A DNA stretch of 11,814 nt from a virus (UHGV-0249779); one strand, 5' to 3'. Positions 2,815 through 10,921 are shown, counted from the first letter of the stretch. Notes: generated from the letters alone by a model not told the origin. Numbers and translations: made by a program.

Positions 2815-3195
2815 TTATTGGGCTTTAATGTAATTTTTCAACTTTGCAGTTTGCTCTACAGCGCTAGGAATGCATCCAAACATATTTGCGCATGAGGTTT
2901 GAACAACAATTTCGTTCTTATCGTTTCCTAAAGGTGTTTTTACAACCTGATATCCAAGCACGGCACTATTTCCAATAGGAGTGTATGTGGAAATTACCGT
3001 TTCATCTGCCATCTGAATTTTCCAACCAGAATTCATTGCTATCCAAGCTTTGGCTCTCGACCAATATGTATCGCATTGCTCTTTACCTTGACAGTAAACT
3101 GGTTGTTGAGCTTGTGCGGCAATTTGGGGATCTATTTTCTGAGCACATCCAGAGATGCTAATCAGAATAGCTGCTGTAACGAATAGTTTTCTCAT
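2815..3195 (-). CDS. Putative lipoprotein of unknown function, immediately downstream of and co-oriented with cI (rex-position moron)
   Basis: Starts MRKLFVTAAILISISGC: a signal peptide with lipobox ISGC. AAGGA lies 7 nt upstream of the ATG at 3195; the ATG at 3201 has too short a spacer. The gene is AT-rich relative to its phage neighbours. The 41-bp gap to the cI stop suggests co-transcription from PRM. Confidence 0.7.
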   Translation of the reverse strand: MRKLFVTAAILISISGCAQKIDPQIAAQAQQPVYCQGKEQCDTYWSRAKAWIAMNSGWKIQMADETVISTYTPIGNSAVLGYQVVKTPLGNDKNEIVVQTSCANMFGCIPSAVEQTAKLKNYIKAQ

Positions 3196-3242
3196 TGACA
3201 TTTCCTTTGTTTTGAATATACAACAAATAAATTGGCAAAAAA

Positions 3243-3935
3243 TTATCCGTGTTTTCTATATGTCTGCGGCATGCTTCCAATGACTTTACCGAAGATGAAC
3301 ACCCGGTTCATCTCGTCTTTCTCGATCGGGTCCCACGGTGAGTAGCTCTTGTTATCAGAGATAACCAGCAGCTTATCCTTCATCATTTGCAGGCGCTTTA
3401 CATGGGCTGTGTCGTCGTACAGAAACGCATAGATACCATCACCGTCGAAAGATTTAACAGTGATATCAACGAACAAAAGATCACCTGGTTCGATCGTTCC
3501 TGACATGCTGTCACCGCGTACGTTAATGATGCGGATATTTTCTGCCTTCCTGCCATCGAACATGTGACGAGCATCGTCAAACGAGTACTCAACCGAGCGT
3601 AGAACTTCTACAAACTCACGATTGATGACACCCGGCCCGGCACTGACTTCTATATCAAGAACGTCAATCTTGAAGTATTTGGAATGGCTGACAGCAGGCT
3701 TCCCTGATTGTTGACCGTCATTTCTCATCGGGCCTATGCCTGATGAGAGCCACTCTGTTCGAACACCCAATGCATTAGCTATTTCAACAATTTTTGTTGA
3801 GCCGCGCGCGTTGCCGCTTGTCAGTCTCCAGATTGTGGGTTGAGCTACGCCAGACGCCTTTGCAAGAGCGCCTTGAGACATTCCAGATTGTTCCATCGCT
3901 AGGTTTAAGCGATCAGCAAGAGTTTCTTTTTTCAT
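3243..3935 (-). CDS. cI: CI-type prophage repressor (N-terminal HTH, C-terminal LexA-like S24 autopeptidase domain)
   Basis: HTH-like segment MSQGALAKASGVAQPTIWRL. C-terminal domain carries the GDSM serine motif and a downstream lysine (HVKRL), typical of S24 self-cleaving repressors. The ATG at 3935 is preferred over the TTG at 3971. A TATAAAT -10 sits 8 nt upstream of the ATG, consistent with a leaderless PRM transcript as in lambda. Confidence 0.85.
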   Translation of the reverse strand: MKKETLADRLNLAMEQSGMSQGALAKASGVAQPTIWRLTSGNARGSTKIVEIANALGVRTEWLSSGIGPMRNDGQQSGKPAVSHSKYFKIDVLDIEVSAGPGVINREFVEVLRSVEYSFDDARHMFDGRKAENIRIINVRGDSMSGTIEPGDLLFVDITVKSFDGDGIYAFLYDDTAHVKRLQMMKDKLLVISDNKSYSPWDPIEKDEMNRVFIFGKVIGSMPQTYRKHG

Positions 3936-4045
3936 AAGTTTTAATTTATACGCTTGCGTATTGATGGTCAAAACACGTTTTGCTATTGATTGGGTTAATG
4001 CGCATTGCTATTATCTATTCATTGTAATACCAATAGGAATTGATA
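3936..4045. promoter_or_regulatory. Divergent immunity control region (OR operators, PR and PRM)
   Basis: PR candidate on the plus strand: -35 TTGATT (3986..3991), 17-nt spacer, -10 TATTAT (4009..4014). Three palindromes: TACGCttGCGTA (3949..3960), CAAAACacGTTTTG (3969..3982) and the perfect AATGCGCATT (3997..4006) inside the PR spacer. PRM -10 TATAAAT lies on the minus strand at 3950..3944. Confidence 0.6.
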
Positions 4046-4273
4046 ATGACAAATCAAACCATTCAACTCGCAATCAGTATTACAGGTAGTCAAAAACGAC
4101 TGGCAGATCTCTGCGGTGTAGCCCAACCCACGGTTTGGCGTTGGCTACACGGTGGCGGAATTGATGCCCGCTATGTAATGAAAATTGTCTCAGCCACTGG
4201 TGGAAAGATTAAACCAGCAGATATTCGTCCCGACCTCGCACCATTGTTTAACGTGAGTAATTCTTCCGCCTAA
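4046..4273 (+). CDS. cro: Cro-like HTH regulator (YdaS/DUF1019-like)
   Basis: 75 aa from the ATG at 4046, with AGGAA 8 nt upstream; the track's 4040 start is a TTG. The pattern QKRLADLCGVAQPTVWRW...ATGGKIKPADIRPDL resembles YdaS-type Cro proteins. First gene rightward of PR. Confidence 0.75.
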   Translation: MTNQTIQLAISITGSQKRLADLCGVAQPTVWRWLHGGGIDARYVMKIVSATGGKIKPADIRPDLAPLFNVSNSSA

Positions 4274-4303
4274 TCTGCGGAGTTAACTGATAAGGCAATT
4301 ACT

Positions 4304-4843
4304 ATGCAACCAATTACATACCAACAGACTAGCGGATTTATCCCGACTGCGGTGATAAATCGTTCTCAAATAAAACAGGTGCCAGGCCACGAAAAAATCC
4401 GTGATGCCGTCCGCGCCTGGTCGGCTGCAGATAATCAGGATGTCGTTGCCGCACTCATTGTGAATGAGTATCGAGCACAGGGCGGCGGCACTATCGATTT
4501 TCCTGATGATGTCAGTCGTGCACGCCAGAAGCTGTTCCGCTTTCTCGATAACAAATTCGATTCTGAAAAATACCGAAATAACGTGCGTGAACTGACTCCA
4601 GCAATTCTGGCAGTACTACCGCTGAAATATCGCGGCCACCTGGTTGAGCAGGATAGCTTCATGGCTCGGCTGGCTGAAATGGAAAAGGAACTCAGTGAGG
4701 CAAAACAGGCTGTCATTCTCAACGCACCACGCCACCAGAAACTGAAGGAGATGAGTGAAGGCATTGTGTCGATGTTTCGTGTGGACCCGGATCTGGCTGG
4801 TCCATTAATGGCGATGGTGACCACCATGCTGGGGGCAATATGA
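4304..4843 (+). CDS. CII-position regulatory protein, YdaT-like
   Basis: 179 aa. Motifs NEYRAQGGG and LTPAILAVLPLKYRGHL match my recollection of Rac-prophage YdaT. Position is directly after cro and before the replication genes. Confidence 0.6.
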   Translation: MQPITYQQTSGFIPTAVINRSQIKQVPGHEKIRDAVRAWSAADNQDVVAALIVNEYRAQGGGTIDFPDDVSRARQKLFRFLDNKFDSEKYRNNVRELTPAILAVLPLKYRGHLVEQDSFMARLAEMEKELSEAKQAVILNAPRHQKLKEMSEGIVSMFRVDPDLAGPLMAMVTTMLGAI

Positions 4844-4929
4844 CAGGTTCAGAAATGGCGAAAGTCGGTCTGCGGGAACAGAACCGACTTTCAGGTGCAA
4901 ATCGTAACACACTCATTGCGGGAGGAATT

Positions 4930-5859
4930 ATGGCAAACACTGCTGAGATATTCAATTTTCCAGTGCCGGATGCGGCACAAAAGGAGCCGCGCGTGGCAGA
5001 TCTCGATGATGGTTATACGCGCATTGCAAATGAGTTGCTGGAAGCTGTGATGCTGGCCGGATTAACACAGCACCAGCTTCTGGTCTTCCTGGCTGTCATG
5101 CGCAAAACATATGGCTTTAATAAAAAACTGGATTGGGTGAGCAACGAGCAACTGTCCGAATTGACCGGGATATTGCCGCACAAGTGTTCTGCTGCAAAAA
5201 GTGTTCTGGTAAAGCGTGGGATTTTGATTCAGAGCGGGCGGAATATCGGTATTAATAATGTGGTCAGTGAATGGGCAACATTACCCGAATCAGGTAAGAA
5301 AAATAAAGTTTACCTGAAAGAGGTAAATTTACCTGAATCAGGTAAGAAAAGTTTACCCAAATCAGGTAAAGGCGTTTACCCGAATCAGGTAAACACAAAA
5401 GACAAACTAACAAAAGACAATATAAAACCTTTTTCGTCCGAGAATTCTGGCGAATCCTCTGACCAACCAGAAAACGATCTTCCTGTGGTGAAACCAGATG
5501 CTGCAATTCAGAGCGGCAGCAAGTGGGGGACAGCAGAAGACCTGACCGCCGCAGAGTGGATGTTTGACATGGTGAAGACCATCGCGCCCTCAGCCAGAAA
5601 ACCGAATTTTGCAGGGTGGGCTAACGATATCCGCCTGATGCGTGAACGTGACGGACGTAACCACCGCGACATGTGCGTGCTGTTCCGCTGGGCATGCCAG
5701 GACAACTTCTGGTCCGGTAACGTGCTGAGTCCGGCCAAACTCCGCGACAAGTGGACCCAGCTCGAAATCAACCGAAACAAGCAACAGGCTGGCGTGACAG
5801 CCGGCAAACCAAAACTCGACCTGACGAACACTGACTGGATTTACGGGGTGGATTTATGA
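4930..5859 (+). CDS. O: Replication initiator O (mosaic: distinct N-terminal iteron-binding domain, lambda-identical C-terminal P-interaction domain)
   Basis: Start preferred at ATG 4930 (GGAGG upstream; MANTAEIFNF aligns with lambda O MTNTAKILNF). The C-terminal roughly 110 aa (SKWGTAEDLTAAEWMFDMV...DWIYGVDL) match lambda O from recall. The track ORF extends to 4840. Confidence 0.9.
   Translation: MANTAEIFNFPVPDAAQKEPRVADLDDGYTRIANELLEAVMLAGLTQHQLLVFLAVMRKTYGFNKKLDWVSNEQLSELTGILPHKCSAAKSVLVKRGILIQSGRNIGINNVVSEWATLPESGKKNKVYLKEVNLPESGKKSLPKSGKGVYPNQVNTKDKLTKDNIKPFSSENSGESSDQPENDLPVVKPDAAIQSGSKWGTAEDLTAAEWMFDMVKTIAPSARKPNFAGWANDIRLMRERDGRNHRDMCVLFRWACQDNFWSGNVLSPAKLRDKWTQLEINRNKQQAGVTAGKPKLDLTNTDWIYGVDL
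5281..5393. repeat. Replication origin iterons: five 18-bp direct repeats, each an internal inverted repeat (TTACCyrAAtCAGGTAAr)
   Basis: Copies at 5281..5298, 5310..5327, 5329..5346, 5353..5370 and 5376..5393, inside the O coding sequence as in ori-lambda. The sequence differs from lambda's iterons. Confidence 0.85.
5394..5440. other. AT-rich DNA-unwinding region of the origin
   Basis: An A-rich tract (cacaaaagacaaactaacaaaagacaatataaaacctttttcg) immediately right of the iterons, matching the lambda ori layout. Confidence 0.6.
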
Positions 5860-7588: not shown

Positions 7589-7776
7589 TAAGCTTTGATT
7601 TTCCATTATCAACCAGCAATAATAATGTCCTCGGAGCCTGAACAACTCCGGTGACTTCTGCGCTAAACGGGGACGTTTATGCGCACATACAATCCAAACT
7701 CTCTTCTCCCTTCACTGATGCAGAAATGCACCTGCAATTCTTTGCATCTAGCGTTTGACCTCTGCGGAGGTGAAGC

Positions 7777-8232
7777 GTGAACCTCCCACAAGACGGCATC
7801 AAATTACATCGCGGCAACTTCACCGCTATCGGCCAGCAGATCCAGCCTTATCTGGAGGAAGGCAAATGCTTTCGCATGGTGCTTAAACCGTGGCGTGAGA
7901 AACGCAGTCTTTCCCAGAATGCACTCAGCCACATGTGGTACAGCGAAATCAGTGAATACCTCATCAGCAGGGGGAAATCGTTCGCTACTTCAGCATGGGT
8001 AAAAGATGCTCTCAAACACACATACCTCGGTTATGAAACCAAGGACCTGGTTGATGTCGTAACCGGTGATATCACCACTATCCAGTCGTTACGCCATACC
8101 TCCGATCTTGATACCGGAGAGATGTATGTCTTCCTGTGTAAGGTTGAAGCCTGGGCGATGAATATTGGCTGCCACCTGACTATTCCACAGAGCTGCGAGT
8201 TTCAGCTGCTGCGCGACAAGCAGGAGGCGTAA
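7777..8232 (+). CDS. ybcN: YbcN/NinB-family protein (recombination, ssDNA-binding)
   Basis: 151 aa, GTG start with GGAGG 7 nt upstream. Matches my recollection of DLP12 YbcN ([19 protein letters not shown]...LLRDKQEA). Confidence 0.8.
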
Positions 8233-9181: not shown

Positions 9182-9266
9182 AGTCAGAGATAACAATCAA
9201 CTAATACTGTTTTGTTGATTTTTGCTTGTAATTGGCGTTTTGGTCTGATTTTTGTGGAGTAAGTTG

Positions 9267-9650
9267 ATGCGTGATATTCAGATGGTTCTTGAGCGTTGGG
9301 GAGCGTGGGCGGCTAATAATCATGAAGATGTGACCTGGTCGTCCATTGCCGCCGGTTTTAAGGGATTAATTCCTTCAAAAGTAAAATCTCGCCCGCAATG
9401 TTGTGACGATGACGCGATGATCATTTGCGGGTGCATGGCCCGTCTGAAAAAGAACAACAGCGATTTGCACGATTTATTAGTAGATTATTATATAGTCGGT
9501 ATGACATTCATGTCACTGGCAGGTAAGCATTGCTGCTCTGATGGTTATATCGGGAAAAGGTTACAAAAGGCTGAGGGCATAATTGAAGGGATGTTAATGG
9601 CATTAGATATCCGGTTAGAGATGGATATCGTTGTTAATAACTCTAATTAA
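9267..9650 (+). CDS. quuD: Late-gene antiterminator Q (QuuD/phage-82/21 type)
   Basis: 127 aa from ATG 9267, with GGAG 7 nt upstream: [21 protein letters not shown]...[20 protein letters not shown]..., matching DLP12 QuuD from recall. The track start at 9252 is a TTG. Confidence 0.85.
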
Positions 9651-9838: not shown

Positions 9839-10921
9839 TTAGAACTGGTAAACCATACCTACAGCAACGATATCATCGGTAGCAACGCCAGATGCTTTCG
9901 TGAAATCGCTCTTATCAATCAGGTTGATTTTGTAGTCAACAAAAGTGGACATATTTTTGTTGAAGTAATAGGTTGCACCTACATCAACATATTCAACCAG
10001 GTCCTGATCACCCCAAACACCCAAGTCTTTTCCTTTAGAATGCAGGTAAGCAACGGATGGACGCAGGCCGAAGTCGAACTGATATTGTGCAACAGCTTCG
10101 AAGTTTTGTGCTTTGTTGGCAATATGGTTATTACCAAAAACAGTCATGTTCTGGGTTTCAGAATAGGTGGTGGCCAGATAGATGTTGTTCGCATCATATT
10201 TCAGACCAGCTGCCCATACTTCAGCATTTTGACCAGAAGCATTCAGACCGTTGTTACCGTAGATAACCTGATTATTAGTGCGATCAGATTTAGCATAGGT
10301 TGCACCCACGCCGAATCCTTCATACTCATAAGTAGTTGAGAAACCGAAACCATCGCCATTAGCTTCAGTTACTTCATTTCGGTCATTTTTGCCCTGATAC
10401 TGAGCTGCAAAGTTCAGGCCATCAACCAGACCAAAGAAGTCGTTGTTACGATAAGTTGCAACACCTGTGGTGCGACCAGTCATGAATACATCTGTTTGGG
10501 TCCAGGTATCGCCACCGAATTCTGGCAGAACGTCGGTCCATGCACCGATGTCGTATGCTACACCGTAGTTACGGCCGTAATCGATGGAGCCGTAGTCACC
10601 GAATTTCAGGCCAGCGAAGGCAAGACGGGTTTTATCTTTGGAGGAACCTTGAGATTCAGCGCGGTTGCCTTTGAATTCATATTCCCACTGACCGAAACCA
10701 GTCAGTTGATCGTTGATTTGGGTTTCACCTTTGAAGCCAAGACGGGCATAAGTAGTATCACCATCATCTGCATCATTAGAGGAGAAGTAGTGCTTAGCAT
10801 TAACTTTCCCGTACAGATCCAGCTTGTTACTGTCTTTATTATAAATTTCAGCTGCCTGAGCAGACATCGCCATCAGTACTGATGCAGCTACAGCAGAAAT
10901 TGCCACTGTTAATTTTTTCAT
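9839..10921 (-). CDS. nmpC: Outer-membrane general porin of the OmpC/OmpF family, prophage-borne (NmpC/Lc type), apparently intact
   Basis: 360 aa. Signal peptide [23 protein letters not shown] followed by AEIYNKD...; C-terminal ...VGMVYQF with terminal Phe; a beta-barrel-like alternating aromatic/Gly composition. Location between Q and the holin, antisense, matches DLP12 nmpC and the PA-2 lc gene. Confidence 0.9.

Follow-up and report, generated by a model that had tools for sequence, protein, structure and literature searches.

Probable cro and cII genes of the YdaS/YdaT type in the early region of a lambdoid prophage, with candidate operators for the CII-like protein

The YdaS- and YdaT-type genes

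The stretch of viral DNA considered here (UHGV-0249779; 11,814 nucleotides, hereafter referred to as the window) contains, between positions 4046 and 4843, two rightward open reading frames (ORFs) encoding proteins of 75 and 179 amino acids (aa), with a divergently oriented cI-type repressor gene on one side and lambdoid replication genes on the other (Table 1). The original prediction, made from the sequence alone, had placed the two ORFs within 4046–4843, where both were confirmed (at 4046–4273 and 4304–4843), and had likened their products to YdaS and YdaT of the Rac prophage, occupying the positions of Cro and CII. We consider, with a probability of about 0.88, that this pair of ORFs represents cro and cII of a lambdoid E. 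coli prophage whose early region is related to those of phages phi80, HK639, and 4A7. The gene pair as such has already been characterized, and the window holds a new copy of it, in a prophage that is very common.

The first gene of the rightward operon, which diverges from the repressor gene across the operator region, has AGGA 8 nt upstream of ATG 4046, with TTG 4040 being the start given in the ORF list. Its 75-aa product belongs to the YdaS family, passing the Pfam profile YdaS_toxin (PF15943) with 54.6 bits against a cut-off of 30 (E = 9.3e-15, residues 6–64), with weaker matches to P22_Cro and HTH_3 that fall below their respective cut-offs. The protein was also assigned to phrog_35, transcriptional repressor (1.5e-23), aligned by BLASTP with YdaS of the K-12 Rac prophage (32% over 63 aa, 6e-10), and weakly matched the solved Cro of the Xylella prophage Xfaso 1 (3bd1, E 0.002). 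A GC hairpin (4266–4280, plus strand; CCGC-CTAATCT-GCGG) lies over the cro stop codon and has counterparts at this position in phi80 (GCCGCC-TAAC-CGGCGGC) and HK639; those of close relatives have longer stems. This hairpin was considered as the phi80 nut core, and was found not to be that element.

The second gene, preceded by AAGG, encodes a member of the YdaT family. The 179-aa protein passes YdaT_toxin (PF06254) with 100.9 bits against a cut-off of 21 (E = 5.7e-29), with residues 67–154 covering profile positions 1–90 of 92; it matches phrog_163, “CII-like transcriptional activator” (8.2e-66), and aligns by BLASTP with K-12 Rac YdaT (34% over 96 aa, 1e-11). Detectable similarity to YdaS and YdaT, on which the original prediction turned, was thus found in actual alignments for both proteins. 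The name DUF1019, however, which had been attached to YdaS, formerly belonged to the YdaT family, PF06254, and is still used by JGI and NCBI for homologues of the 179-aa protein. The closest characterized relative is phi80 cII (JX871397 PHI80_49; X13065, “cII gene”), an ortholog with 65% identity over the full length (E = 1e-90); this relationship supports the regulatory, Cro- and CII-like role originally proposed for the pair, a role that is also the published consensus. Phage_CII and lambda Cro were not among the Pfam matches of the window at E up to 0.1, and a tblastn search with lambda CII detected lambda-type cII in loci L171, L176, and Kp4864-1, and in none of the loci carrying phi80-type cII. 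As judged from its sequence, the 179-aa protein is a functional analogue of lambda CII and not a member of the lambda CII family. The family of the 179-aa protein is small: among 1.8 billion representatives, it accounts for 108 clusters at 50% identity.

An AlphaFold2 monomer model of the 179-aa protein, built from an alignment of 34 homologues and having a mean predicted local distance difference test score (pLDDT) of 84, predicts a POU-like, five-helix helix-turn-helix (HTH) DNA-binding domain at residues 29–113 (helices 29–42, 45–58, 70–82, 88–104, and 107–113, with an alpha2–alpha3 loop at 59–69), followed by the high-confidence helices 119–138 and 143–160, which correspond to the oligomerization helix of YdaT, and by helix 162–175 within a conserved hydrophobic tail. 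The first approximately 27 residues form an N-terminal extension predicted to be disordered, with pLDDT values below 50 for residues 1–24. In a Foldseek comparison of the model with the PDB, the top five matches were all 8bt1 or 3c4r (probability 1.0, target-normalized template modeling score 0.72–0.74, root-mean-square deviation of about 3 Å, 26–27% identity), with the next match having an E-value above 1. The predicted recognition helix (residues 70–82, SRARQKLFRFLDN) contains F78 and R79, both nearly invariant in 37 aligned homologues including Rac YdaT. The arginine matching R79 is Arg57 in Rac YdaT, where it is required for DNA binding (Wons, 2025; PMC11879457), and Arg60 in CP-933P YdaT, where no other residue of the recognition helix is fully conserved (Prolic-Kalinsek, 2023; PMC9986795). 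A conserved Ala-Pro (141–142) interrupts the C-terminal helix, unlike in Rac YdaT according to the alignment. Specific to the phi80-cII subfamily are the N-terminal extension and the tail, P-x-x-x-G-P-L-M-x-M-V-T-x-M-L-G.

The original prediction had described the extra length of the second protein as C-terminal and of unknown function. On the basis of the model, the extra C-terminal part would mostly be the tetramerization helix alpha6 of YdaT, together with the subfamily tail, so that a large share of this region is accounted for; only its last approximately 18 residues (PDLAGPLMAMVTTMLGAI), like the N-terminal extension, lack an assigned protein function. Furthermore, in comparison with Rac YdaT the extra length does include this tail, but it also includes the approximately 27 residues at the N-terminus.

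Operator region, upstream partners, and prophage context

The gap between cI and cro (74 bp, or 110 bp) contains divergent promoter-like sites and repeated palindromes that recur at a candidate PL. The repressor ORF (3243–3971, minus strand) matches Pfam HTH_3 and Peptidase_S24 (1.5e-18) as well as phrog_4 (9e-70), and the candidate PR at 3986–4014 (plus strand) is placed as are the annotated pR promoters of phi80 and HK639, in agreement with the PR-driven position next to an S24-type cI that had been proposed for the pair. The cI gene is annotated in a 693-bp form in phage 4A7 and in a 729-bp form in PhiR30_1. Transcription from PRM is predicted to start near 3936, that is, about at the cI ATG 3935, which would yield a leaderless cI mRNA—as is the case for lambda PRM—and favors the 230-aa cI over the 242-aa, TTG-initiated ORF. 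As for the two candidate operators, the palindrome within PRM has a copy (86% complementary) in the candidate PL/OL region at 2566–2587, and the one overlapping the −10 element of PR, which begins AATACGC in most relatives, has a direct copy at 2543–2560, adjoining the candidate PL. This latter promoter (2570→2542; TTGATA, 17-nt spacer, TATTAT) lies amid copies of the OR palindromes (2543–2587).

Several database names suggest instead a type II toxin–antitoxin module, with one protein being a poison and the other its neutralizer: the two Pfam families are called YdaS_toxin and YdaT_toxin, and the RefSeq product name for the second gene in E. coli genomes is “toxin YdaT domain-containing protein.” Derepression or overexpression of Rac ydaS/ydaT is reported to be toxic (PMC5700377; PMC5700373; PMC11879457). 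A fixed, co-inherited pairing would be expected of such a module, and the gene neighborhoods display a different pattern. In 57 Enterobacteriaceae loci from different species, encoding phi80-type CII proteins 40–73% identical, the upstream gene was classified, and the 48 distinct upstream proteins (the window's own included) were assigned to the YdaS family (31), to HTH_3 (16), and to lambda Cro, PF09048 (3). Likewise, 80 near-identical cII genes from viral contigs were found with two Cro types widely different in sequence. Cro families unrelated to each other are thus swapped upstream of a constant cII, suggesting that cro travels with cI and the operators and that cII is a separate module; such exchange of the upstream partner is not the behavior of a toxin with its antitoxin, and is the opposite of what co-evolution of the two would produce. 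In addition, the genes always lie between a cI-type repressor gene and replication genes, and both proteins are HTH DNA binders according to family and fold prediction. CP-933P YdaT was shown to be non-toxic, with the authors rejecting a toxin–antitoxin role (Jurenas, 2021; PMC8630535), and the toxicity of Rac YdaT was ascribed to transcriptional activation of rcsA (PMC11879457). We regard a toxin–antitoxin function, already largely refuted, as highly improbable for the pair. A very common E. coli prophage gene is still carried in databases as a toxin, while the evidence points to a CII-type regulator of lysogeny.

The early genes exo, bet, gam, kil, cI, cro, cII, O, P, ren, ninB, and Q are all intact in the window, and the Pfam families Phage_rep_O and Phage_lambda_P are matched downstream of cII. 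For the O gene, ATG 4930 is preceded by a GGGAGGA ribosome-binding site and aligns with the start of phi80 gene 15, and residue 31 of the longer ORF is the first one covered by the PHROG and Pfam matches. A 1.6-kb cI–cro–cII block is 96–98% identical in coliphages PhiR30_1, 4A7, Lambda_4C10, D2, 1W, 3W, and Perceval, with records of isolated coliphages labeling the near-identical block cI/Cro/cII; among 5,426 complete E. coli genomes, 2,224 have a match to this block, and in 717 the match covers 80% or more of it. The window yielded no N gene (kil–cI interval, 2250–2815), and none is annotated in the 4A7 record. A put-type antiterminator RNA was considered and set aside, as the leader downstream of the candidate PL has no meaningful similarity to the putL-like RNA of HK639, and Rfam returned zero family matches over the whole window at E up to 0.1. 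Two further genes lie on the minus strand. A predicted lipoprotein of 128 aa, with a signal peptide and Cys lipobox (phrog_16082, function unknown), is encoded in the rexAB position just downstream of cI, and could share the repressor transcript in the lysogen. As in phage 4A7, a moron encoding an OmpC-like porin separates the Q-like antiterminator gene from the lysis region, and it could alter the surface of the lysogen.

Table 1. Coordinates of the genes and of the predicted regulatory features in the window
Feature	Position	Strand	Details
Early region of a lambdoid prophage			Order on to Q: moron, cI, cro, cII, O, P, ren, two small genes, ninB, Q
Lipoprotein-like moron	2815–3201	−	
cI-type repressor (HTH and S24 autopeptidase)	3243–3935	−	230 aa from ATG 3935; listed ORF reaches TTG 3971
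Candidate PRM	3943–3971	−	−35 TTGACC (3971–3966), −10 TAAATT (3948–3943); consensus scan and reading of the sequence
Candidate operator palindrome, TATACGCTTGCGTATT	3947–3962		Between PRM −35 and −10; inference
Candidate PR, sigma-70-like, extended −10	3986–4014	+	TTGATT, 17-nt spacer, TATTAT, TG before −10
Candidate operator, AATGCGCATTGCTATT	3997–4012		Overlaps PR −10; inference
Cro-like repressor, YdaS family	4046–4273	+	75 aa from ATG
CII-like regulator, YdaT family, phi80-cII subfamily	4304–4843	+	179 aa
YdaT-box-like element, GTGATAAATCGTTCTCAA	4352–4369		Codons 17–22 of cII; candidate CII operator
Stable hairpin	4861–4891	−	In the 86-bp gap (4844–4929) from the cII stop to the probable O start
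Replication initiator O	4930–5859	+	Start probably ATG 4930, not 4840
Two small genes			Between ren and ninB; function unassigned
Predicted promoter upstream of orf33/ninB	7595–7623	+	TTGATT, 17-nt spacer, −10 AATAAT (7618–7623)
Palindrome, TTGATTTTCCATTATCAA	7595–7612		Over −35 and most of the spacer; differs from the YdaT box at one position; candidate second CII target
ninB	7777–8232		
Q-like antiterminator	9252–9650		
OmpC-like porin gene	9839–10921	−	

Candidate operators of the CII-like protein

By analogy with work on Rac, CP-933P, and phi80, from which DNA binding, tetramerization, and activation of cI are carried over, the pair would act as follows. The S24-type CI would keep PR shut in the lysogen; when PR is active, cro and cII would be transcribed rightward from it, and Cro, presumably an all-alpha HTH dimer, would bind the OR operators and turn down both PRM and PR. 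The CII-like protein, with its POU-like HTH domain on a long helix, would assemble into tetramers and, after infection, bind an inverted repeat of the TTGATT-N6-AATCAA type, most likely at 4352–4369, thereby switching on leftward cI transcription in the manner of a PRE analogue and favoring lysogeny. Toxicity on overexpression, if any, would be incidental, as it is for lambda CII.

The proposed site at 4352–4369 resembles the YdaT box (TTGATT-N6-AATCAA) and recurs at +48 in 50 of 54 distinct phi80-type cII 5′ ends, and at +54, after two extra codons, in three more. In five phi80-type cII 5′ ends, including that of mEp237, the element matches the YdaT box perfectly; in mEp237 (ATGATAAATCGCAATCAA) the left arm is ATGATA, as compared with ATGATT in Rac, and the right arm, AATCAA, is identical to that of the Rac box. 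Across the 50 distinct 5′ ends TGAT(A/T) is invariant, with the first codon varying among Met, Leu, and Val. The codon for Ile-18 is ATA in 44 cases, ATT in 8, and ATC in 0, as compared with 56% ATC elsewhere in the same genes, and codon 21 invariably ends in T, with the amino acid varying among Ala, Asn, Ser, Asp, Phe, and Tyr. This codon pattern points to selection on the DNA within a part of the protein predicted to be disordered, with the caveats that the sequences are related by descent and that rare codons are common near gene starts. On the strength of this conservation, 4352–4369 would be the most likely CII operator. In lambda, the CII site also lies inside the first codons of cII.

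Several observations weigh against the scheme as applied to the window. The experimentally studied Rac and CP-933P proteins are only about 27–34% similar to the 179-aa protein, and no cIII homologue was found in the window (kil–cI interval, 2250–2815), leaving a lambda-style control of CII stability unsupported. The +48 element is imperfect in the window (GTGATA...TCTCAA), being a weaker variant; no YdaT box with up to three mismatches occurs between 4058 and 5323, and no leftward promoter was predicted in 4150–4450. Finally, the +48 element is coding, and its conservation could come partly from the protein or from the use of rare codons near the start.

A scan of the window for YdaT boxes with at most one mismatch returned two sites, against 0.07 expected. 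The first of these, TTGATAATGACAAATCAA at 4040–4057 over the cro start codon, is probably a chance occurrence; it is polymorphic in near-identical relatives (TTAATA, TTAACA, or TTGATG) and its right arm consists of cro Asn-Gln codons, and it therefore carries little weight as a YdaT box. Lambda-style repeats were considered as well, and a TTGC-N7-TTGC noticed by eye at the start of cII, on the minus strand, was rejected, being kept neither in relatives nor with the second cro type. Elsewhere, a perfect inverted repeat, CTGATT-CGCGTA-AATCAG, lies inside ydaW of the K-12 Rac prophage (L003, 8119–8136), two mismatches from the YdaT box, and may be due to chance.

The second site is the palindrome in the predicted ninB promoter, a promoter already marked as putative in X92588, the phage 82 record from the 1990s. 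Among 122 occurrences of the ninB-promoter segment collected from IMG/VR viral contigs, a perfect TTGAT-N8-ATCAA occurs in 97, always at one offset and around 27 different centers. The information content is 1.83 bits per position in the left arm, 0.76 in the center, 1.66 in the right arm, and 1.88 in the −10 element, as compared with 0.14 just upstream of the promoter, where homology ends. In the scanned sequence of 4A7, phi80, and HK639 (24000–49576 only for HK639), the ninB site is the only perfect YdaT box. The fully sequenced phages with the segment all carry phi80-type CII, with the exception of Kp4864-1, in which a lambda-type CII is accompanied by a segment that has kept the −35, the −10, and the hairpin behind them but lost the right arm of the palindrome. 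Loci with a non-YdaT CII may nevertheless have the site, perfect in L087 and with one mismatch in L171, and the association between palindrome and CII type is weak (Fisher p 0.02–0.03 on related sequences, uncorrected for relatedness, with only four non-phi80-type loci, which are mixed). A ninB-type palindrome was also sought in a Rac-like phage, and in Rac-SA53 the sole box is the one at the start of its ydaT gene, with no such site downstream of ydaT. The ninB palindrome as a target of CII is a lead, not a result.

In most relatives the perfect TTGATT-N6-AATCAA extends from −35 to −18 of the ninB promoter, which is a typical position for a repressor, and Rac YdaT bound to intergenic operators lowers racR expression (PMC11879457). 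The 179-aa protein might accordingly favor lysogeny mainly as a repressor, acting on the palindrome of the promoter for ninB to Q or on the PR transcript region and delaying the late genes. Such a role would be in keeping with the uniqueness of the ninB box in the three scanned phages and with the loss of its right arm, in a promoter otherwise kept, in Kp4864-1; the sites of L087 and L171, the weak association with CII type, and the lack of a downstream site in Rac-SA53 argue in the other direction, as does the fact that phi80 cII was named for the classical cII role. A mainly repressive function is, in our judgment, rather unlikely, and it can coexist with the Cro/CII explanation.

Under the Cro/CII explanation, phi80-type CII could have two conserved operators, one in its own N-terminal codons (4352–4369) and one at 7595–7612, with the latter letting CII hold back the genes up to Q, a proposal that we make tentatively and consider possible rather than probable. 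The two operators appear not to have been described before, and the new content of the present analysis is limited to these candidates for the phi80-type subfamily, the biology of the gene pair itself having already been published. If the proposal is true, a DNA site would determine part of the amino acid sequence of CII, in parallel with lambda cII, and the 7595–7612 site would be a protein-level counterpart of the lambda CII-dependent anti-Q promoter PaQ. Confirmation would provide a widespread alternative to lambda CII with a defined regulon, comprising its own PRE-like site and the nin/Q promoter.

Two hairpins lie close to these features. At its left edge the ninB promoter adjoins varied moron genes across a sharp mosaic boundary; on its other side come a hairpin at 7627–7655 (GTCCTCGGAG-CCTGAACAA-CTCCGGTGAC), a 33-codon ORF (7679–7780; “orf33” of phage 82), and ninB. 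The loop of this hairpin, CTGAACAA, and its tail, CTTCTGCGC, are kept in most relatives, whereas in Kp4864-1 the loop is CTGAGCAA and the tail differs. The stems vary—GCCAGCGG/CCCTGGC in phi80, ACGG/CCGT in mEp237, and GTCAG/CTGAC in Kp4864-1—in a way that looks like compensatory change. The hairpin between cII and O (fold z-score of −3.9 on the minus strand, weak U-run) is at the position of the annotated M3 RNAs, homologues of lambda oop, of phi80 and HK639, although its sequence differs, and is a candidate for an antisense RNA against the 3′ end of cII.

In comparison with most relatives, the window has one mismatch in the ninB palindrome and two in the stem of the hairpin that follows; together with a +48 element that is among the weaker variants and with the N gene not found, these deviations could be taken to mean that the module is a decaying remnant, with its ORFs intact and its circuit no longer working. 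This seems improbable, given that all early genes from exo to Q are intact, that the cI–cro–cII block is nearly identical to that of phages isolated as virions, and that those phages likewise lack an annotated N gene.

Relation to phi80, CP-933P, Rac, and lambda

The equivalence of YdaS/YdaT with Cro/cII was argued from genomic context by Jobling (2018; PMC5917428), and that paper credits Casjens (2003) with identifying the two as Cro/cII homologues. CP-933P YdaS and YdaT were subsequently shown to act like Cro and CII, with YdaT being homologous to phi80 CII and activating a PRE-like promoter (PMC8630535). The structure of CP-933P YdaT was then solved and its operator mapped as TTGATT-N6-AATCAA, with a POU-like HTH domain and a long alpha6 that forms an antiparallel four-helix bundle and thereby a tetramer (PMC9986795). 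In the Rac prophage, YdaT binds a box, ATGATT-N6-AATCAA, that lies over the start codon of its own gene, and it increases the activity of a reverse promoter within ydaS by as much as 29-fold, so that more racR is expressed (PMC11879457).

Of these systems, phi80 is the nearest to the window. Its gene order, namely cI, OR, gene 30 (Cro-like), cII, M3 RNA, gene 15 (O), and gene 14 (P), is matched, and phi80 cII has both the N-terminal extension and the C-terminal PLMxMVTxMLG tail of the 179-aa protein. The +48 element is ATGATAAACCGCGCTCAA in phi80, as compared with GTGATAAATCGTTCTCAA in the window. On the other hand, phi80 cI is only 23% identical to the cI of the window, indicating a different immunity type, and phi80 cro is 34% identical over 44 aa; these differences are ordinary lambdoid mosaicism. 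Phi80 also has an N gene and nut sites, neither of which was found in the window.

CP-933P YdaT (PDB 8BT1) and its close homologue 3C4R have the same fold as that predicted for the 179-aa protein, CP-933P YdaT occupies the same CII position, and the recognition helices are very similar (SRARQKLFRFLDN in the window versus ARNTQKIFRWLDK in CP-933P YdaT). The similarity in sequence is, however, barely detectable (phmmer E 0.001), and CP-933P YdaT, with 141 aa, has neither an extension at the N-terminus nor a hydrophobic tail. The repressor with which it is paired, PaaR2, has no S24 domain (PMC8630535), unlike the cI of the window. Rac YdaS and YdaT (b1357/b1358) belong to the same Pfam families as the pair in the window, and the Rac box overlapping the 5′ end of ydaT, which activates repressor synthesis, is comparable to the +48 element. 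The Rac prophage differs in having a repressor without S24 (RacR), YdaU/YdaV as replication genes, and a YdaT of 140 aa, which also acts on the host gene rcsA and is toxic when expressed (PMC11879457).

Finally, the likeness to lambda extends to the gene order, the divergent cI, the PR/PRM architecture, the probable leaderless cI mRNA, and the oop-like element after cII, and would also include a tetrameric HTH activator with an operator inside the 5′ end of cII. Lambda CII, however, is a protein of 97 aa that forms an unusual dimer of dimers on direct repeats, TTGC-N6-TTGC, whereas YdaT is a 222-symmetric tetramer that recognizes an inverted repeat (PMC9986795).

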